Below, in pieces: positions 2,853 to 47,687 of a stretch of DNA of 64,000 nucleotides. Below the pieces are notes generated by a model. That model was given only the letters and a program-made list of their open reading frames with translations, made no database searches and was not told where the DNA came from. The DNA comes from a virus. Positions within the stretch are counted from its first letter, which is position 1; each line of letters opens with the position of its first letter. Position numbers and translations under genes: made by a program. The stretch covers positions 1 through 64,000 of IMG/VR virus record IMGVR_UViG_3300020202_000066. One strand, given 5' to 3'.

Positions 2853-3953
2853 CTACACGTGGGTGAGGGGCATCAGGATGGTGACGAATCCGCTATCGCC
2901 GGAGGGGCGCATCGTGCTGGGGTAGGTCTCCTTCGTGAATCCCCACGTGAAGTTGGGAGTGCCGCACGTTGCGAGGAAGTCGAGGACATACTTCGCGTTG
3001 AAGGCTAGCAGCCGGCCCGGTCCATCGAGGACGCACTCGACCTCGCGACGGGCCTCGCCGAATTCTGGTGACATCGAGCTGACGACTATCCGATCATCTC
3101 GGAAGTCGAAGAACACCTTGTTCTTCGTGTCCTTCGCGAGAGGGAGCACGCCCTTCAGGTTGTCGATCAGCTCCTGCGTCCGAATGCTCGCCGAGGTGGC
3201 CTGCGTCTTCGGGAGGATCGTGCGGAAGTTCGGGAACGTCTTGTCAGACAGACGAGCACGGATCTCCGTGGGGCCCAGGGTGAACCCCACGTGCTCCTCC
3301 GAGAGACTCACTCCGACGGTCGCCTGGCCCCTCAGCATGGGCAGCAGCTCGGCCAGAGAATGAGACGGCACGAGCGCCGTGAAGTCCGGGATCTCCACGC
3401 CCTCGACCTTGCGCGCCCACATCGCGAGTCGGACGCTGTCGGTGGCGACGATGCTCAACTCGCCGGCCACGCAGTCCAGGTGCACCTCCGCGTAGGTGGT
3501 CGACTCGCCACCGGCCACCGGCAGCACCTGGCGGAGGGCTTCGGTCAGCAGAGCTGTTGGAACATCGAACCGCTTCAGCGGATCGGTCACCGAGGTGACC
3601 ACCGATCCGAACACCTCGTAGCCGGACACGTCGTATCGCGCATCCGCGCTCGTCACGACAGCGCGCAGTCCCTGGGTGGAAACTTCCACCCTGTCCTGCC
3701 GCGACGTCAGGACGCCACGCAGGATGTCCATCCCCAGGCGGCCGACGATCGCGACGGAGCCGTTCTCGCCCTCATCCACGGGCATCGAAGTGGAGGCCGA
3801 GAGCTGGTGGTTCTCCGTCGCGAGCCGGAGAGTCCCGTCCCTCACCTCCATCTGCACGTTAAGATCGCTGTGCGTGACAGCGCTCGCCGGACAAACCTTA
3901 GCGACCGTCTCGAACGCACCCACCAGGGTTTCCTTGTGGCAGGCGAACCTCAT
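2853..3953 (-). CDS. dnaN: DNA polymerase III beta sliding clamp
   Basis: 366 aa from ATG 3953; VATDSVRLA, FPNFRTILP, AFNAKYVLD, ILMP C-terminus. Confidence 0.9.
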   Translation of the reverse strand: MRFACHKETLVGAFETVAKVCPASAVTHSDLNVQMEVRDGTLRLATENHQLSASTSMPVDEGENGSVAIVGRLGMDILRGVLTSRQDRVEVSTQGLRAVVTSADARYDVSGYEVFGSVVTSVTDPLKRFDVPTALLTEALRQVLPVAGGESTTYAEVHLDCVAGELSIVATDSVRLAMWARKVEGVEIPDFTALVPSHSLAELLPMLRGQATVGVSLSEEHVGFTLGPTEIRARLSDKTFPNFRTILPKTQATSASIRTQELIDNLKGVLPLAKDTKNKVFFDFRDDRIVVSSMSPEFGEARREVECVLDGPGRLLAFNAKYVLDFLATCGTPNFTWGFTKETYPSTMRPSGDSGFVTILMPLTHV

Positions 3954-41685: not shown

Positions 41686-42150
41686 CTAGGGCTCGGGCGC
41701 GATCTCACTCCGGGCAGGTTCGCGCTCCGCCCCGGTCTCGGTCGAGCCGTCGGGGAACACCACGATGCAGGGAACGCCGCTTTTCCGGGCGAAATCGATC
41801 GTGTACCACGTACCGCCGCGAGCCTGGTGCGTGGACTCGCGCGGGCAGCCGATGATGAGGTCGACACTCCGCACGATCGCCCGATTCCGAGCGAAGTGAG
41901 TGGCTGGAGGGGCGACCTCATCGTTGAAGGAGAAGCAACCCTGCCATGGGTCGCCGTCGGGACCGGGCATGGAGTGGATCCGCGGGCGCGGCTGCATCTT
42001 GTCCGCGATGGCGGCTACCTCGACGTCGACGCCGCTGCACTGCCCGTGGACGAACAGTGCCGGGCGGTGCTCCTGAAGGAGGTCGAGCACGCGCTCGCGC
42101 TGCGCAGGCGTCATCCCGTAGCGGGTTCCGGTGATTCCGATTCGGGTCAT
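41686..42150 (-). CDS. SLOG/YspA-like nucleotide-binding protein
   Basis: IGITGTR..HGQCSGVD..RNRAIV..GGTWYTI. Confidence 0.75.
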   Translation of the reverse strand: MTRIGITGTRYGMTPAQRERVLDLLQEHRPALFVHGQCSGVDVEVAAIADKMQPRPRIHSMPGPDGDPWQGCFSFNDEVAPPATHFARNRAIVRSVDLIIGCPRESTHQARGGTWYTIDFARKSGVPCIVVFPDGSTETGAEREPARSEIAPEP

Positions 42151-42199
42151 CGCTGCTACCTCGCGATCTTGGTTTCGAGAGATCACGATAGCATGTCGT

Positions 42200-42409
42200 T
42201 CAGGTGGCGGTCGCTGGCCTTGGACGGCCGACGCGCTTGCACGTCACCTTGAACTTCCGGAACTCCTGGATGCTCAGCAGCTCTGGCGCGGCCGCGGAGA
42301 GGTACACGATCAGCACGTCTCCGGCGCCGACACCCACCGAGACCAGCCCACGAGTGCCGGACTTGTCCAGGCTGGCGTAGAGTTCACGTGCGGCGGTGGC
42401 GGCCGTCAT
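42200..42409 (-). CDS. hypothetical protein
   Basis: Short ORF after last tRNA; GLVSVGVG..LIVYL. Confidence 0.4.
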   Translation of the reverse strand: MTAATAARELYASLDKSGTRGLVSVGVGAGDVLIVYLSAAAPELLSIQEFRKFKVTCKRVGRPRPATAT

Positions 42410-42448
42410 AGCTCGAAGCGTACCAGCTCTGGCGGCAAGCGAACGCGA

Positions 42449-42530
42449 TGGGGCCGTGCCGAATCGAACGGCCAAGCGCGGCGGCATCTGCTCTACAGGC
42501 AGACGGTGGATCCCACTCCCCAGCAGCCCC
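42449..42530 (-). tRNA. tRNA-Tyr(GUA)
   Basis: TCTGC-CTGTAGA-GCAGA, long variable arm, GTTCGA. Confidence 0.85.
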
Positions 42531-42541
42531 GGGAACCGAAG

Positions 42542-42616
42542 TACCGCCAGCGGGATTCGAACCCGCACTGTCACGACTCTCGATCGTGTGCCTCTGCCAG
42601 GTTGGGCTACGGCGGC
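42542..42616 (-). tRNA. tRNA-Leu(GAG), short variable arm, C33
   Basis: CACGA-TCGAGAG-TCGTG. Confidence 0.8.
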
Positions 42617-42623
42617 AAGAAAG

Positions 42624-42707
42624 TACCCGGGGTGGGAGTCGAACCCACAAATGGACTCGCGTCCGCTGGGTCTGAGCCAGCTGGCTATCCCGTTCGCCTA
42701 CCCGGGC
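42624..42707 (-). tRNA. tRNA-Leu(CAG)
   Basis: GCTGG-CTCAGAC-CCAGC, long variable arm. Confidence 0.9.
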
Positions 42708-42723
42708 AAGATGAACCGCACCA

Positions 42724-42796
42724 TGCCGACCCGCGGGATCGCACCGCGTTCTCCCGCTCTTCAGGCGGGCGTGAGGACTACCTTCACCAGATCGGC
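42724..42796 (-). tRNA. tRNA-Phe(GAA)
   Basis: CCCGC-CTGAAGA-GCGGG; T-loop TGCGA. Confidence 0.85.
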
Positions 42797-42807
42797 GAGA
42801 GATCGCG

Positions 42808-42881
42808 TGCCCGCCCCGGGATTCGAACCCGGAACCTTCCGCTTTTGAGACGGATGCCTCTACCGGTTGGACCAGGCGGGC
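42808..42881 (-). tRNA. tRNA-Leu(CAA), short variable arm
   Basis: TCCGT-CTCAAAA-GCGGA. Confidence 0.85.
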
Positions 42882-42886
42882 GAGAG

Positions 42887-42957
42887 CAGGCCCTGACGGA
42901 TTCGAACCGCCACCCGACGGGTTGGAGCCGTCGATGCTGCCGTTACACCAAGGACCT
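42887..42957 (-). tRNA. tRNA-Trp(CCA)
   Basis: GACGG-CTCCAAC-CCGTC. Confidence 0.9.
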
Positions 42958-42973
42958 GAGTGGGGAGTGCAGC

Positions 42974-43049
42974 TGGCTCCGGGAGCAGGGATCGAACCTG
43001 CGGCGGACCGGTTAACAGCCGGCTGCTCTGCCAACTGAGCTATCCCGGA
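42974..43049 (-). tRNA. tRNA-Asn(GUU)
   Basis: Loop CTGTTAA; encoded CCA. Confidence 0.92.
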
Positions 43050-43055
43050 GCGAGC

Positions 43056-43127
43056 TGGTTGCGGGCCCGGGTGTCGATCCCGGCATTCCAGGCTTATGAG
43101 GCCCGGCTGATCGCCGAATCGCCCGCA
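43056..43127 (-). tRNA. tRNA-Met(CAU), initiator-like, reduced D-arm
   Basis: CGGGC-CTCATAA-GCCTG; ends CCCGCAACCA. Confidence 0.75.
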
Positions 43128-43129
43128 AC

Positions 43130-43390
43130 GAGTTAGGGCTGGGCCGTCAGGCCCCGGGATTGAGAAGGCGCAGAAGGCACCAGGCCCATGCGGGCCCGGT
43201 AAAGAGGGGGAGCCGCCACAAGTGCGGCCGTGCAGCGGGATAACGCCGAGGGACGGACGTGGTGGTCGGGAGCGCAGCACCGACCGCGGGCGCTGCCGGG
43301 CGGATCGAATGCTGTCCAGTCATCGGTGGCTCCTCGGGGCACGTCAGGCCCTCGGGGTCGACGTAGGATCCGACGGCGGCGGTGGGTGCA
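43130..43390 (-). ncRNA. unidentified structured RNA spacer (~260 nt)
   Basis: Long-range helices CCGAGGG/CCCTCGG and GACGTG/CACGTC, several hairpins, no RBS-led ORF. Confidence 0.5.
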
Positions 43391-43394
43391 ATAA

Positions 43395-43465
43395 AGGCCC
43401 CAGAGAGAATCGAACTCTCGCCACCGGGTTACAAAGCCGGCGCTCGACCTTCGAGCTATGAGGCC
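43395..43465 (-). tRNA. tRNA-Thr(UGU)
   Basis: Loop TTTGTAA with C-C mismatch at stem base. Confidence 0.8.
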
Positions 43466-43469
43466 GAAG

Positions 43470-43541
43470 AGCCCTGACGGCGGATCGAACGCCGGTCTGC
43501 TGCTTACGAAACAGCCATCCTACCAACTGGACGATCAGGGC
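43470..43541 (-). tRNA. tRNA-Thr(CGU)
   Basis: GCTGT-TTCGTAA-GCAGC. Confidence 0.9.
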
Positions 43542-43544
43542 TGA

Positions 43545-43616
43545 AGCTCTCGCCGGGGGTCGAACCCGGGTTTCGGTCTTACCAAGACCGCGTGCTACCA
43601 GCTGCACCACGGGAGC
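43545..43616 (-). tRNA. tRNA-Thr(GGU)
   Basis: CGGTC-TTGGTAA-GACCG. Confidence 0.9.
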
Positions 43617-43620
43617 GGAG

Positions 43621-43692
43621 TGCGGGTCGAGCGAGTCGAACGCTCTCATCCAGTTTGGAAGACTGGCATGCAACCACCAACATCTGGCCCGC
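43621..43692 (-). tRNA. tRNA-Gly(UCC)
   Basis: CCAGT-CTTCCAA-ACTGG. Confidence 0.88.
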
Positions 43693-43702
43693 ATGAAACT
43701 GA

Positions 43703-43775
43703 AGTGCCCGGCGGGGCTCGAACCCGCGACCTCCTCGTTGGCAACGAGGCGTTCCGCCAACCGAACTCCGAGCAC
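43703..43775 (-). tRNA. tRNA-Gly(GCC)
   Basis: CCTCG-TTGCCAA-CGAGG. Confidence 0.88.
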
Positions 43776-43779
43776 AGGA

Positions 43780-43852
43780 TGTGGCGAGAGGGAGTCGAAC
43801 CCTCGTGACCGGATTCACAGCCCGGCGCCTGTACCGCTCGGCCATCGCCACC
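43780..43852 (-). tRNA. tRNA-His(GUG)
   Basis: CCGGG-CTGTGAA-TCCGG; G-1 encoded, A73. Confidence 0.88.
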
Positions 43853-43870
43853 ACGATCAGCACTCGAACC

Positions 43871-43947
43871 TGGCGAACATGATGGGACTCGCACCCACTT
43901 TCTCCGGCGTGACGGGCCGGCGTCTCGACTGCTTCGACCTCATGTCC
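43871..43947 (-). tRNA. tRNA-Asp(GUC), C33
   Basis: CCGGC-CCGTCAC-GCCGG; T-loop TGCGA; CCA encoded. Confidence 0.82.
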
Positions 43948-43951
43948 GTAG

Positions 43952-44025
43952 TTCGCCCGGAGGGACTCGAACCCCCGAAATGGCTGGGTGTAGGCCAGCT
44001 GCCTTTGCCGCTTGGCGACGGGCGA
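43952..44025 (-). tRNA. tRNA-Val(UAC), C33
   Basis: GCTGG-CCTACAC-CCAGC. Confidence 0.82.
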
Positions 44026-44030
44026 ATGGA

Positions 44031-44101
44031 TGGAGCTCCAGGGAATCGAACCCTGATCTGCCGGGTGCAAGCCGACCGTCCTCCCGTTGAACGAGAGCCC
44101 C
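44031..44101 (-). tRNA. tRNA-Ala(UGC)
   Basis: GTCGG-CTTGCAC-CCGGC; G3-U70. Confidence 0.92.
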
Positions 44102-44140
44102 AGAAAGAGAAACCCCCGGGCCAGGTGAGTGGTCCGGGGG
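44102..44140 (-). terminator. intrinsic terminator of attenuator 1
   Basis: CCCCCGGACCA-ctcacc-TGGCCCGGGGG-TTTCTCTTTCT directly before tRNA-Ala. Confidence 0.85.
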
Positions 44141-44165
44141 CCTTGAGCGCGCTCTTCAGTTCGCG

Positions 44166-44243
44166 CTACAGGGCGGACCACCCGCCGGCATCGACGCCGG
44201 CCGCGTGTGCGGTCGTCCCTGTGTGCACAGTGAAGAGCAGCAT
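44166..44243 (-). CDS. leader peptide 1 MLLFTVHTGTTAHAAGVDAGGWSAL
   Basis: ATAGGAG-N6-ATG; 25 codons; followed by terminator; not in ORF track. Confidence 0.8.
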   Translation of the reverse strand: MLLFTVHTGTTAHAAGVDAGGWSAL

Positions 44244-44282
44244 GGTCGTCTCCTATCACGGTCGTGGCTATCGCGGTGCAAG

Positions 44283-44354
44283 TCCTCGCGGAGAGATTCG
44301 AACTCCCAGCCGTCTGGTTCGAAGCCAGCCGCTCTTCCGCTGAGCTACGCGAGG
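44283..44354 (-). tRNA. tRNA-Arg(UCG)
   Basis: Loop CTTCGAA. Confidence 0.88.
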
Positions 44355-44358
44355 ATGA

Positions 44359-44431
44359 TGTACCCGGCAAGGCTCGAACTTGCGGCCGCCCTGGTAGGAA
44401 CAGGGTGCTCCTCCGACTGAGCTACGGATGC
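44359..44431 (-). tRNA. tRNA-Arg(CCU)
   Basis: CCCTG-TTCCTAC-CAGGG. Confidence 0.85.
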
Positions 44432-44450
44432 AGGAGCCACACACGGGAAC

Positions 44451-44528
44451 TGGTCTGCGCGGAGGGACTCGAACCCCCGGTCTCCTGCTCCCAAGGCAGG
44501 CGCTTTCGCCAGGCTAAGCTACGCGCAG
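44451..44528 (-). tRNA. tRNA-Pro(UGG)
   Basis: CCTGC-CTTGGGA-GCAGG; CCA encoded. Confidence 0.9.
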
Positions 44529-44531
44529 AGA

Positions 44532-44602
44532 TGCACCCACGTGGAATCGAACCACGGGCTCGGTCTTCGGAGGACCGCATCCTTCCTCTGGACGATGGGT
44601 GC
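44532..44602 (-). tRNA. tRNA-Arg(CCG)
   Basis: CGGTC-CTCCGAA-GACCG. Confidence 0.88.
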
Positions 44603-44606
44603 TGCT

Positions 44607-44677
44607 TGGTGCCTCTGTCGGGAGTCGAACCCGATGGGCAGCCTTCGCAGGGCTGCCTCCAATCCCCTGGCAGAAGC
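44607..44677 (-). tRNA. tRNA-Arg(GCG), reduced D-arm
   Basis: CAGCC-CTGCGAA-GGCTG; CCA encoded. Confidence 0.75.
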
Positions 44678-44684
44678 ACGGAAG

Positions 44685-44756
44685 TAGGCCGTCGTGGTGC
44701 TGCCCCACGCTCCTCCGACTTATAAGGTCGGCGCTCTGCTGATGAGCTAACGGCCC
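44685..44756 (-). tRNA. tRNA-Ile(UAU)
   Basis: CCGAC-CTTATAA-GTCGG; atypical T-loop GGCAGCA. Confidence 0.8.
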
Positions 44757-44759
44757 AGA

Positions 44760-44900
44760 TGGCCGGGAAGCGTGGAGCTATATACGCCGTCGGGGAGACG
44801 GCACCGGGGGTGGGCAGAATGGTCGCCTCGGGGCGAAGCTGGTGAGTGCGATGTGGGCGACCATGGTCCAGCGTAGCGCGCACGCGCGGTGGCTGGTGCA
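44760..44900 (-). ncRNA. unidentified structured spacer (~140 nt)
   Basis: 9-bp helix ATGGTCGCC/GGCGACCAT and hairpin GCCGTC/GACGGC. Confidence 0.35.
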
Positions 44901-44905
44901 GATGA

Positions 44906-44992
44906 CGGAGAGCCAGAGACTCGAACTCTGACGCGGTGAACCGCCCGCCGGGTAGCAACCGGGGCCCGATACCAGTTACGGGATAGCTCTCC
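44906..44992 (-). tRNA. tRNA-Ser(GCU)
   Basis: Loop TTGCTAC, long variable arm, G73. Confidence 0.88.
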
Positions 44993-45000
44993 AGGAACAG

Positions 45001-45081
45001 AGGAGGGCGGAGGTGTCGATCCCCGAGCCCGAAGGCCCCACCGTTTTCAAGACGGCTTGCCGCGCCGGCGGCGCGCCCTCC
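45001..45081 (-). tRNA. tRNA-Ser(UGA)
   Basis: GCCGT-CTTGAAA-ACGGT, long variable arm. Confidence 0.82.
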
Positions 45082-45095
45082 AGGAACAACACCAG

Positions 45096-45165
45096 AACGC
45101 TGGCCGGGAATCGAACCCGGGCCGGTACCTTTGCAGGGCACCTCCGCGCCACGCGAATCCAGCGC
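45096..45165 (-). tRNA. tRNA-Cys(GCA)
   Basis: GTGCC-CTGCAAA-GGTAC; U73; reduced D-arm. Confidence 0.8.
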
Positions 45166-45205
45166 AAAGAGAAAGCCCCCGGCGGTCCTGTGACTGCCGG
45201 GGGCT
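45166..45205 (-). terminator. intrinsic terminator of attenuator 2
   Basis: AGCCCCCGGCAGTC-acag-GACCGCCGGGGGCT-TTCTCTTT directly before tRNA-Cys. Confidence 0.88.
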
Positions 45206-45223
45206 CTCGATCCTGCGTCGTCG

Positions 45224-45292
45224 TCAGGGCGTCGAGACTCCCGGCCAGCCGGCGCCGCGGGAACTCGACGAACAGGTGACGATGCGGATCAT
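45224..45292 (-). CDS. leader peptide 2 MIRIVTCSSSSRGAGWPGVSTP
   Basis: ATAGGAG-N6-ATG; 22 codons; followed by terminator; not in ORF track. Confidence 0.8.
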   Translation of the reverse strand: MIRIVTCSSSSRGAGWPGVSTP

Positions 45293-45368
45293 GGTCTGCT
45301 CCTATCCGCGTCGGGACGCGGTGGGTGCACGCTCGGGCGATCGAAGGAGGTTCACGGGGGGGAAGAGG

Positions 45369-45671
45369 CTAGACGCCGACGGAGACGACCTTTCCCAGGA
45401 TCGCGGTCCGCTTGACCCAACCGTTGATGCGGCCGATGTTGTTCCCGATGAGAGCTCGGTCTCCCTGCAGCTGCTTGACCAGATGCAAGAGGAATCCTCC
45501 ACGCCAGCGGACGAACACCGCGTCTCCGACCGCTACGGCCATGGGATCGACCGGCGCGATGGTCACGAGCTCGCCGCTCTCGATCCGGCCGCGCATCGAC
45601 CCCCCGAGCGGACGAACCTTCGCGACTCGACCAGCAGAGATCTCCCGCAGCGCATCCGATGCCCAGCCCAT
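45369..45671 (-). CDS. small S24/S26 peptidase-fold protein inside the tRNA array
   Basis: GGSMRGRIESG..GDAVFV..HLV..IGNN.GRINGW; GGAGGAG RBS. Confidence 0.75.
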   Translation of the reverse strand: MGWASDALREISAGRVAKVRPLGGSMRGRIESGELVTIAPVDPMAVAVGDAVFVRWRGGFLLHLVKQLQGDRALIGNNIGRINGWVKRTAILGKVVSVGV

Positions 45672-45760
45672 CGCCTGACTCCTCCGGCGACCTTCGTGCG
45701 GCCGCCACCGATGCCGGGCGAGTAGGTCGCGCGCTGCGATTCGGGTGCGCGGATCTCGAG

Positions 45761-45846
45761 AGGACCGGAAGGGGATCGAACCCTTCGTGCGCCTCGCGGC
45801 GCGACGGCTTAAAAGGCCGCTGCCGACACCAGTCGGCCACCGGTCC
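45761..45846 (-). tRNA. tRNA with Lys(UUU) anticodon and long variable arm
   Basis: GCGGC-CTTTTAA-GCCGT then GCGCC-GCGA-GGCGC arm; GGACCGG/CCGGTCC acceptor. Confidence 0.85.
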
Positions 45847-45848
45847 GA

Positions 45849-45919
45849 TACCCCCGCCAGGAATTGCACCTGGGTCTCCACGTCATCAGCGTGGCATCCT
45901 GCTGTTGAACGACGGGGAT
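45849..45919 (-). tRNA. tRNA-Ile(GAU)
   Basis: CCACG-CTGATGA-CGTGG; T-loop TGCAA. Confidence 0.82.
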
Positions 45920-45924
45920 GCGGA

Positions 45925-45996
45925 TGAACCCGCCGGGATTCGCACCCGGATGCCCGGATTAAGAGTCCGGTCCGTTGCTGTTACGGTCACGGGTCC
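45925..45996 (-). tRNA. tRNA-Lys(CUU)
   Basis: CCGGA-CTCTTAA-TCCGG; T-loop TGCGA. Confidence 0.85.
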
Positions 45997-46008
45997 AGAG
46001 GAGGGGAG

Positions 46009-46081
46009 CAGCTCCTGATCGTGTCGAGCGATCACCTTCCGGGTCAAAGCCGGACGTGCAGAGCCGCTACACCAAGCAGCC
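46009..46081 (-). tRNA. tRNA-Gln(UUG)
   Basis: TCCGG-CTTTGAC-CCGGA; acceptor mismatch; T-loop CTCGACA. Confidence 0.72.
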
Positions 46082-46090
46082 GGGGGAGAG

Positions 46091-46161
46091 CAGCCGCCCA
46101 GGGAATCGAACCCCGACCCTCTCGGTCAGAACGAGGTGTGCTGCCACTACACCCGGCGGCT
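46091..46161 (-). tRNA. tRNA-Gln(CUG)
   Basis: Loop TTCTGAC. Confidence 0.87.
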
Positions 46162-46164
46162 TCG

Positions 46165-46355
46165 GAATTGATCCAGCTGGTTGACGGTGGGGCGGTGAAG
46201 CGAGAGCAGCGCCTCACTCTTACCCGCCGAGCGCCCTCGGCAGACCCCTCCGCCGACCAGCTACGCCTGGCGTTGCTGGATGGGTTTGGCCCGTCCGGGC
46301 CCGGGAATGCCGGCACCCGCGACGGGCCGACGCTTGAGCAGGAAGGAGCGGAGGA
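46165..46355 (-). ncRNA. unidentified structured spacer (~190 nt)
   Basis: 13-bp closing helix 46250-46262/46175-46187 enclosing two hairpins, plus an upstream long hairpin. Confidence 0.45.
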
Positions 46356-46356
46356 G

Positions 46357-46429
46357 TAGCCCGCCAGGGACTCGAACCCTGCTTTCCTGGCTGAGAACCA
46401 GGTGTCCTGGCCGGATAGACGAGCGGGCC
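46357..46429 (-). tRNA. tRNA-Glu(CUC)
   Basis: CCTGG-TTCTCAG-CCAGG. Confidence 0.9.
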
Positions 46430-46435
46430 ATGAGA

Positions 46436-46507
46436 TAGCCCGCCGGAGACTCGAACTCCGCTTCCCCGTTTGAAGGACGGGGGACTTCACCCATAGTCGA
46501 GCGGGCC
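46436..46507 (-). tRNA. tRNA-Glu(UUC), C33
   Basis: CCCGT-CCTTCAA-ACGGG. Confidence 0.85.
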
Positions 46508-46633
46508 GCGAGGAACGCGAGAAGGGCCCCGAGGGGCCGGCGTTCGAGCGGACCGGTGAGCGAGGGTGAGGAGTGCATGCGCCGGCATAGCGCTGCCCGG
46601 CCGGCGCGGGTGCATGTCGAGGACGACTGCGAG

Positions 46634-46900
46634 CTACTGGCCCGTCGACGTCGGATGCGGAGGCGGGTTGGTTTCGAGGTGCTCGAGCAGCGCGCGTACT
46701 GCGCAATCCTTCGACTCGATCAGCTTCCTGAGCGCCACGGTGCGCTCCGCGCTGCCGGGGAGCATCTGGACGAGCTGGTGAGCTAGCACGCAGTACGGCT
46801 CGCTGGCCTTCTGCAAGAAGAACGGCAGGTGCGCGAAGCGGAAGAACTTCAGCAGGGGCTCGGGGGGCGGTGCCGCGGGGACTTCGGTCGTGTCGGTCAT
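46634..46900 (-). CDS. conserved phage helical-hairpin protein
   Basis: FFRFAHLP..ERTVALRKLIESKDCAVRA; GAGGAG RBS. Confidence 0.75.
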   Translation of the reverse strand: MTDTTEVPAAPPPEPLLKFFRFAHLPFFLQKASEPYCVLAHQLVQMLPGSAERTVALRKLIESKDCAVRALLEHLETNPPPHPTSTGQ

Positions 46901-47056
46901 AGGCAGACTCTCCTCGTGGTCGGAGCCAGAATGACTTGGGCGTCGGTGTGAGCCGCTGGAAGCTCCCCGGCGTCAGGGCCCCGCGTGCGATGGAACCGGG
47001 TCTTGTCCCCACGGGCCTGTGCTTCGGCCAACCTCGACCGTCAGCAGCTCGGGCGA

Positions 47057-47085
47057 ACCGTAGGCGCGCCGGGGCGCGGGCGCAA
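47057..47085 (-). promoter_or_regulatory. sigma70-like promoter upstream of the tRNA operon
   Basis: TTGCGC-N17-TACGGT, same style as the 37.6 and 38.4 kb promoters. Confidence 0.6.
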
Positions 47086-47241
47086 GCACTGTCAGCCGGG
47101 GATAGCGAGGGCCACCAGGCTGACGACCGCGACCGACTCCAGGATCGCGACGAAGTCGAACAGCAGGATGGCTCGCTCCGTCGGCTCGAACGACCTTCCG
47201 TCGAGCCAACGGGCGATCAGGTACGTCACGGATACCTCCCT

Positions 47242-47415
47242 TCAGCGCGGCAGCACGACCTCCGTCGGCGTGTGTCCGTTCACCAGGTAGTAGATCAGCC
47301 CGTGCCAGCCGTAGCAGTGAACGATCCACGCGAGGATCGGGATCCCGATGAGGATGAAGAGGATGAGCACGGCGGCTTCATCGGATGATTCGCCGCGTCG
47401 GTTGAGGCGGGTCAC
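47242..47415 (-). CDS. small membrane protein
   Basis: GTG coupled to upstream stop; one TM. Confidence 0.45.
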   Translation of the reverse strand: MTRLNRRGESSDEAAVLILFILIGIPILAWIVHCYGWHGLIYYLVNGHTPTEVVLPR

Positions 47416-47687
47416 TTCGCATCGTCTCCCACACCGGTGAACTTCACCGAGCAGCGGAGGTGCTTGCCGGGCGTGCTGGCCCACCAGTCGTAGAGCCACG
47501 CGACGAGGGCGAACGGGGTCACGAGGAGGGCGCACACGCCGGCGACCAGCAGAGGTCCGCCGATCAGAAGGATGACCAAGAGCCACGGGAAGGCCAGCGG
47601 CGTGCAGCCGAGCGCAGCAACCCACCCCGGCCAGATCTGAAAGCCCCATCCGATCAGGGACACGATCGCGAGCGCATATGGCATCAC
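47412..47687 (-). CDS. membrane protein
   Basis: Very hydrophobic; GAGGAGG RBS. Confidence 0.55.
   Translation of the reverse strand: MMPYALAIVSLIGWGFQIWPGWVAALGCTPLAFPWLLVILLIGGPLLVAGVCALLVTPFALVAWLYDWWASTPGKHLRCSVKFTGVGDDAK

Follow-up and report, generated by a model that had tools for sequence, protein, structure and literature searches.

Why would a very short open reading frame (ORF) and a strong intrinsic terminator stand directly in front of a series of transfer RNA (tRNA) genes? This question is raised by the IMG/VR virus record IMGVR_UViG_3300020202_000066, of which we examined positions 1 to 64,000 (the window, that is, the first 64 kb of the 89,959-bp record, at 65% GC). A tRNA array runs along the minus strand from 46507 down to 42449. 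A 594-nucleotide (nt) gap in it, from a Lys(UUU)-like tRNA (45846..45760) to tRNA-Cys (45165..45095), contains a putative leader ORF and a terminator, together referred to here as the module. A sequence-only reading of this DNA had proposed that the module is an attenuator in which a Cys-Ser4-Arg run provides the control codons. Our analysis leads us, with moderate confidence, to a similar view: the module is probably a translation-sensing leader-peptide transcription attenuator that gates the Cys-Ser-Ser-Ile-Arg-Arg-Pro-Arg-Arg block of the array. This is the best supported reading, by computation on one genome only.

All that the sequence-only reading had stated about the letters themselves proved correct. 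The leader ORF was recovered with exactly the codons that had been claimed for it, ATG ATC CGC ATC GTC ACC TGT TCG TCG AGT TCC CGC GGC GCC GGC TGG CCG GGA GTC TCG ACG CCC TGA (Table 1). A Shine-Dalgarno-like AGGAG (45303..45299) lies 6 nt 5' of its ATG (AGGAG-N6-ATG), and the GC content at its third codon positions (GC3) is 0.86. The terminator hairpin begins 15 nt after the leader stop codon, and the distance from the T-tract to the start of tRNA-Cys (45165/45166) is 0–1 nt according to ARAGORN and Rfam, so that there is no room behind the terminator for a promoter of the block's own. ARAGORN also confirmed that the first three tRNAs after the terminator are Cys, Ser and Ser; the rest of the gated block consists of Ile(UAU), Arg(GCG), Arg(CCG), Pro(UGG), Arg(CCU) and Arg(UCG), down to 44282. 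This AGGAG is part of a conserved 5' motif. The pattern TGCAC-N17-19-GATAG has just two occurrences in the 89,959 bp of the genome, one at the module and one at a paralogous twin module that heads the next tRNA block. Judged from its geometry, the motif may be a promoter, with TGCAC as a -35-like element and GATAGG, 8 nt before the ATG, as a -10-like element; a consensus sigma-70 scan found no promoter.

A census of the genome yielded 25 loose terminator matches, three of which read as a clean GC hairpin followed by TTTCTCTT, and two of these three are the terminators of the modules. One consensus terminator scan missed both of them owing to its loop limit. The third clean terminator (GCCCGCCGG..CCGGCGGGC TTTCTCTTG) lies outside the window, at genome positions 86480-86530 (-), with no tRNA or small leader ORF nearby. 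The hairpin and U-tract might instead serve the processing or stability of the tRNA precursor as an element of its 5' leader, in an RNase P/E context, and not terminate transcription in the natural host. In favor of this, the U-tract runs right up to the mature 5' end of tRNA-Cys, and terminator function in a host that is possibly a planctomycete is itself predicted from sequence. However, the canonical terminator geometry is found only three times in the genome, and 31 of the 33 array tRNAs have no such leader; we consider a processing element highly unlikely.

Folding of the leader transcript revealed the alternative pairings on which an attenuator would depend, and both had been anticipated in the sequence-only reading. 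In the minimum free energy (MFE) structures, hairpin 1:2 joins the 5' half of the leader to the 3' half and to the 15 nt that follow the stop codon. When the 5' half was masked, the 3' half paired with the terminator 5' arm. In these masked folds, the 2:3 pairing joins region 2 (45245..45232) to 45210..45196 by 6 + 7 base pairs. Region 2 (GCCGGG-AG-TCTC) repeats the terminator 3' arm (GCCGGGGGC-TT-TCTC) in degenerate form. The 211-nt region as a whole was more stable than all 200 of its dinucleotide shuffles (z = -3.70).

Table 1. Positions of the module, its twin and adjoining genes in the window
Feature	Position	Strand	Basis or remark
Leader ORF, 22 codons + TGA, MIRIVTCSSSSRGAGWPGVSTP	45224..45292	-	putative, read from sequence
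Candidate control codons 7-12, TGT TCG TCG AGT TCC CGC (Cys-Ser-Ser-Ser-Ser-Arg)	45257..45274	-	rarity of the run
5' motif, TGCAC-N18-GATAGGAG-N2-GACC(ATG)	45299..45329	-	common to module and twin
Hairpin 1:2 (anti-antiterminator)	45209..45290	-	MFE structures
Region 2, antiterminator strand	45232..45245	-	pairs with 45210..45196 in folds masked by a stalled ribosome
Intrinsic terminator, GAGAGCCCCCGGC / inner stem / GCCGGGGGC, then TTTCTCTTT (45174..45166)	45166..45208	-	hairpin of -26.9 kcal/mol
Cys(GCA)	45165..45095	-	first tRNA behind the terminator; ARAGORN, Rfam
Ser(UGA)	45081..45000	-	second tRNA behind the terminator; ARAGORN, Rfam
Ser(GCU)	44993..44904	-	third tRNA behind the terminator; ARAGORN, Rfam
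P0001, 100-aa S24-peptidase-like protein	45369..45671	-	ends 76 nt before the leader ATG
Twin module ("attenuator 1")	44102..44280	-	abuts tRNA-Ala; heads the next tRNA block

Leader-peptide attenuation is a textbook mechanism, described for amino-acid operons. In a model of the switch, a stalled ribosome was represented by 28 unpaired nt, and we calculated the probability that the terminator 5' arm is already paired upstream just before its 3' arm is transcribed, using truncated transcripts; thrL and trpL of E. coli K-12 (NC_000913.3) served as control sequences. In the model without pairs across the ribosome, sequestration of the 5' arm was 0.09 with no ribosome and 0.63-0.79 with a ribosome stalled at codons 2-12; at later positions it was 0.52 (codon 13), 0.00-0.01 (codons 14-15) and 0.01 (stop codon). 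The controls gave profiles of the same shape: thrL went from 0.34 without a ribosome to 1.00 at its Thr/Ile control codons and 0.00 at the stop codon, and trpL from 0.00 to 0.71 at Trp-Trp and 0.01 at the stop codon. The switch score of the module, 0.69, was reached by 4 of 300 dinucleotide shuffles of the leader, and those of thrL and trpL were 0.66 and 0.70 (0/300 shuffles each). When pairs across the ribosome were allowed, 3 of 120 shuffles matched the module. A first version of the truncated transcript, with an arbitrary long 5' flank, was dropped for its misleading baseline of 0.77. These results suggest that a ribosome held in the first half of the leader would favor antitermination, while one that reaches the stop codon would not.

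The Cys-Ser4-Arg run (codons 7-12) forms the last six codons, that is, the 3' end, of the stall window in which antitermination is predicted. Its Ser residues are encoded by three different codons (TCG, TCG, AGT, TCC), as had been noted from the sequence. TGT and AGT are rare in the phage's genes: in 37 phage ORFs, TGT makes up 19% of Cys codons and AGT 6% of Ser codons. A run of at least five Cys/Ser codons was found in 242 of 124,905 stop-free 21-codon segments of the genome (0.19%), and at least four consecutive codons read by Cys(GCA), Ser(UGA) or Ser(GCU), which are exactly the next three tRNAs, in 0.56% of such segments. Both rarity tests are post hoc, as the run was chosen after inspection.

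The twin module raises the question of what has been kept between the two copies. Its 5' motif is the same (TGCAC-N18-GATAGGAG-N2-GACCATG), and its 25-codon leader ORF (MLLFTVHTGTTAHAAGVDAGGWSAL) is followed by a CCCCCGG..CCGGGGG hairpin and TTTCTCTTT; a central GCCGGC..TGG and CCGGGGG(N)TTTCTCTTT are also common to both modules. The twin keeps the RNA architecture with a different sequence, and the two peptides are otherwise unrelated, sharing only an (A/G)GW motif near the C-terminus. In the twin leader, 19 of 24 codons are read by anticodons of the following block (0.27% of 119,105 segments), 23 of 24 residues are amino acids of that block (0.05% of segments), and each of the four Thr codons is used once. 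In the equilibrium model, the terminator probability of the twin falls to 0.38-0.56 for some stalls.

Comparison of the two modules bears on the other explanations. The ORF could be a functional micro-protein gene that was inserted in the array with its own terminator and is no regulator; the start signal is good, the GC3 is gene-like, and the (A/G)GW motif recurs. The peptides nevertheless differ in the remainder while the RNA architecture is kept, and the common GW coincides with two RNA features, namely the apical GCCGGC hairpin and region 2; the peptide is also below the length usable by family tools. A micro-protein is thus very improbable in our judgment. Another possibility is that the terminators are temporal gates opened by processive antitermination, by a lambda N/Q-like or put-like factor or a modified RNA polymerase, which would split the array into early and later parts and leave the ORFs idle. 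Processive antitermination is well established in phages, the array holds two of the genome's three clean terminators, and the conserved 5' motif could be a loading site for such a factor instead of a promoter or start signal. This proposal leaves unexplained why the ORF lies inside hairpin 1:2 with a 2:3 alternative, and why the codons of the twin leader match the following block; moreover, no antiterminator gene or RNA was identified, and Rfam detected no family except tRNAs above the gathering score in 42000-47500. Such gates are distinctly unlikely.

The plainest alternative is an ordinary terminator that ends the transcript of P0001, with the 22-codon ORF as a chance frame and the tRNAs supplied by leaky read-through. 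P0001, just upstream of the leader, is a real gene: of 360 candidates, 352 are homologues at E <= 0.001. AGGAG-N4-8-ATG is also present at ordinary gene starts, and the 5'-motif pattern matched a single locus in IMG/VR, itself an ordinary gene start without a tRNA. The composition of the whole leader is within chance, and homologous arrays without the module exist (both discussed below). On the other hand, a strong stop that abuts at least nine tRNA genes without space for a promoter would silence them, and the module recurs before the next block, where the upstream neighbor is a tRNA and not a protein gene. The switch score and the Cys-Ser4 run, each seldom matched by shuffles or by genome segments, also argue against a chance frame. 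We consider an ordinary terminator unlikely, and favor the translation-sensing attenuator.

An independent analogue of the module was found in phiCbK-like phages. In GenBank, phiCbK has rho-independent terminators annotated immediately ahead of its tRNA blocks, and one leader there, MSKTYRQFVRQIQVVRNIRAGRSRMADEGFRD (start MSKTYRQFVRQIQVVRNI...), precedes Phe-Val-Ile-Ile-Val-Gln-Gln. Its modelled sequestration was 0.05 without a ribosome, 0.88 for stalls at codons 2-15 and 0.02-0.19 thereafter. Modules of this kind resemble ours in having a promoter-like hexamer pair 7-8 nt before the ATG, a leader, a terminator and then tRNAs, and in a leader segment that copies the terminator 3' arm. Their leader ORF (of about 30 codons) spells the amino acids of the following tRNAs, as ours may do. 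The region of the phiCbK leader gave blastn matches in 46 phage records. In five Dolichocephalovirinae (phiCbK, CcrRogue, CcrSC, CcrColossus and Brevundimonas phage Gurke), the leader ORF is kept throughout, and a leader segment equals 10-11 of the 11 bases of the terminator 3' arm in all five; in CcrSC (TCGGACGGGCC) and CcrColossus, where the arm differs, this segment differs in step with it. Phages of this group with tRNA-Asn or tRNA-Tyr in the block carry extra Asn or Tyr codons in the leader. Because the copy is kept in five of five phages and tracks the arm where the arm changes, the phiCbK family provides comparative support for a leader-encoded antiterminator, which our locus does not have.

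There are further differences between the two systems. The phiCbK module shares no detectable sequence similarity with ours, which is therefore an analogue and not a homologue; its terminator lies about 130 nt before tRNA-Phe, whereas ours abuts the tRNA, and the host phylum probably differs. The phiCbK genome paper states that Rfam yielded no RNA elements beyond tRNAs, and the string "attenuat" does not occur in it (PMC3556154). We also observed unannotated, tRNA-like cloverleaf pieces in array gaps of the phiCbK segment 47000-53000 (L208), at 2951-3139 and 3601-3758, with the T-arm-like stretches GGTTCAATTCC, GGGTGCGATCCCCAC and GGGTTCGAGTCCCAC. These may be tRNAs missed in the record, which would alter the counts of leader-to-tRNA matches there.

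Several of our results weigh against attenuation at this locus. The sequence-only reading had emphasized the composition of the leader: 12 of its 21 non-Met residues are indeed I/R/C/S/P and the other nine are amino acids of the later block, but this is not above chance, as the I/R/C/S/P fraction of the whole leader is matched or exceeded by 33 of 206 small ATG ORFs of the genome. Only 8 of 21 leader codons are read by anticodons of the block under standard wobble, a fraction reached by 64 of the 206 small ORFs. The two ATC codons are decoded by Ile(GAU) of the upstream block and not by the Ile(UAU) of the gated block, and no tRNA of the array reads TCC, CCC, GTC or GCC under standard wobble. 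With pairs across the ribosome permitted, the model keeps the 5' arm sequestered even when the ribosome is at the stop codon (0.88). At full-length equilibrium, the terminator is dominant in all states (P = 1.00); this probability is uninformative, because thrL and trpL, with values of about 1, fail the same comparison. The switch score of the twin (0.32) was reached by 29 of 300 shuffles and is not significant, and two of the three phiCbK modules showed no switch in the crude model.

The search for relatives likewise told against attenuation. No relative carrying either module was found in phage records, IMG/VR or genome contigs. Specifically, 44900-45800 had no blastn match among 50,697 phage records, tblastn with the neighboring proteins found distant phages only, and the whole-module pattern had 0 matches in genome contigs. 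IMG/VR scans with the terminator, P0001, an 88-aa upstream protein and ThyX revealed no syntenic relative; the ThyX scan gave three loci with one tRNA among them, at a locus edge, and no array. The terminator pattern matched at least 120 IMG/VR loci, nine of them with any tRNA, and stood just before a same-strand tRNA in none of the matches listed. A metagenome scan with an alignment of P0001 gave 146 confirmed loci, of which the best 80 were taken, and 84 loci were then examined. A tRNA was present in 16 of these, and in 10 (L001, L007, L010, L015, L041, L050, L052, L061, L083 and L084) the homologue adjoined or lay inside tRNA genes. None of the ten had a leader or terminator at that place or, in a scan of these array loci, a terminator before a tRNA, and in L050, L052, L061, L083 and L084 the next tRNA follows the P0001 homologue after 22-33 nt, without a leader or terminator. 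Contigs from two further soil runs were identical or fragmentary, with one G>A change at 44205 in a low-depth contig. The sequencing runs listed for the locus are three DNA runs and no RNA run.

What stands of the attenuator proposal is therefore the architecture (a start signal, an ORF inside hairpin 1:2, a 2:3 alternative, a strong terminator and abutting tRNAs), the behavior of the model, which resembles that of thrL and trpL, and the position of the Cys-Ser4-Arg run. What does not stand is the argument from overall composition and from a general correspondence between the leader codons and the tRNAs of the block.

How does the module compare with known systems? The multivalent leaders of enterobacteria include thrL (Thr/Ile) and ilvL (Ile/Leu/Val). 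The module shares with thrL, ilvL and trpL a short ORF with clustered control codons (candidate ones in the module), the 1:2, 2:3 and 3:4 hairpins and an intrinsic terminator, and with thrL and trpL the ribosome-mask profile and score. In contrast to these, the regulated genes would be tRNA genes and not biosynthetic or transport genes; the element belongs to a phage, with two modules in series in one tRNA array; several amino acids are sampled instead of a long run of one; and there is neither sequence homology nor a match to any Rfam leader family. Since the downstream genes are tRNAs and no sequence homologue was found, the module is a variant outside every described leader family. T-box riboswitches bind uncharged tRNA directly, without leader translation, and control aminoacyl-tRNA synthetase and amino-acid genes. 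They resemble the proposed system in that tRNA charging is sensed and a choice is made between terminator and antiterminator; an Rfam cmscan of 42000-47500 gave no T-box match at E <= 1.

The nearest published case among the papers searched is the trn operon of Anabaena PCC 7120, a long tRNA array that is silent until translation is stressed (PMC8421152) and is repressed by TrcR, a ribbon-helix-helix protein (PMC10272220). It is likewise an accessory tRNA array that responds to impaired translation; it differs in being controlled by a repressor protein and in residing on a cellular megaplasmid, not in a phage. The words "attenuat", "leader" and "terminator" have 0 occurrences in PMC8421152. 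A full-text literature search gave no account of leader-peptide attenuation of tRNA genes among the matches listed, judged by title and abstract, and a search for phage tRNA arrays with terminators gave nothing on the subject among the matches listed.

The surroundings of the module deserve description as well. ARAGORN found 29 tRNAs in the array. Rfam added three above its gathering score (45925-45996, 43874-43947 and 44685-44756) and one more below it (44610-44677), which gives 33 in total; a relaxed ARAGORN search, together with the anticodon loops, identifies these four as Lys(CUU), Asp(GUC), Ile(UAU) and Arg(GCG). The tRNA with anticodon UUU (Lys) at 45762-45846 (-) has a long variable arm, and its best Rfam match is tRNA-Sec (51.3 bits, against a gathering score of 47 for that family). 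The 194-nt spacer between the Glu and Gln tRNAs (46162-46355, -) is highly structured, with an MFE of -98 kcal/mol, and at 46252-46319 it matches the DUF3085 RNA motif below threshold (28.6 bits; gathering score, 40.6). In the 267-nt gap between Thr(UGU) and Met (43128-43394, -), there is a third AGGAG-N7-ATG (43334..43321) with a 58-codon ORF (43323..43147); the predicted structure of this gap is strong (-108 kcal/mol), with no canonical terminator.

P0001 matched Peptidase_S24 weakly (E = 0.0084, below the cut-off), and the protein has a GGSMRGRIE motif and a near-invariant Lys66. Its homologues are often located in other phage-like tRNA arrays, and proteins of this type are recurrent passengers of such arrays, since they lie inside or next to such arrays in 10 of the 84 loci. 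Gemmataceae genomes encode many of the P0001 homologues, a hint that the host may be a planctomycete.

From these features, the following mechanism can be proposed. A transcript that carries the short ORF would arise by read-through from upstream or from TGCAC-N18-GATAGG, the promoter-like motif immediately before this ORF. If the leader is free of ribosomes, or if a ribosome proceeds to the stop codon, the leader halves would pair or region 2 would be covered; the GC hairpin and U-tract would then form, and RNA polymerase would stop 0-1 nt before tRNA-Cys. If the ORF is translated and a ribosome stalls in codons 2-12, region 2 would be left free. Such a stall is most plausible at the rare or clustered TGT TCG TCG AGT TCC CGC codons during a shortage of Cys-, Ser- or Arg-tRNA. 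The free region 2 would pair with the terminator 5' arm (45210..45196) before the 3' arm is made, and transcription would continue through Cys-Ser-Ser-Ile-Arg-Arg-Pro-Arg-Arg as far as the paralogous second attenuator, which stands before the next block. Decoding speed would in this way exert feedback control over the supply of phage tRNAs. In this scheme, the sequence features, the pairings in silico and the rarity against shuffles are direct results; translation of the ORF, ribosome stalling, termination and read-through in the host, and the promoter are what we infer from them. Because the mini-gene and a switchable stop directly precede the block, the phage probably makes more of these tRNAs when ribosomes stall for lack of them.

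Taken further, the phage may carry a built-in sensor of the tRNA pool. Two serial, paralogous attenuators would cut the 33 tRNAs into blocks, each transcribed only during stalls on codons that its own tRNAs read, and together with the phiCbK modules they would form a convergent, unpublished class; we see about an even chance that this is correct. The locus would then add a second, sequence-unrelated lineage to that class, a soil phage, possibly of Gemmataceae, with a two-tier design in one array. Such a system would provide a self-limiting supply of tRNAs on demand, for example when late infection has depleted the host tRNAs or anticodon-nuclease defenses have cleaved them, and would amount to a compact, portable sensor of specific tRNA shortage. 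If so, phage tRNA arrays would be regulated organs that read decoding capacity, and not passive patches for codon usage, which would bear on why phages carry tRNAs and on how they meet defenses that target tRNA.

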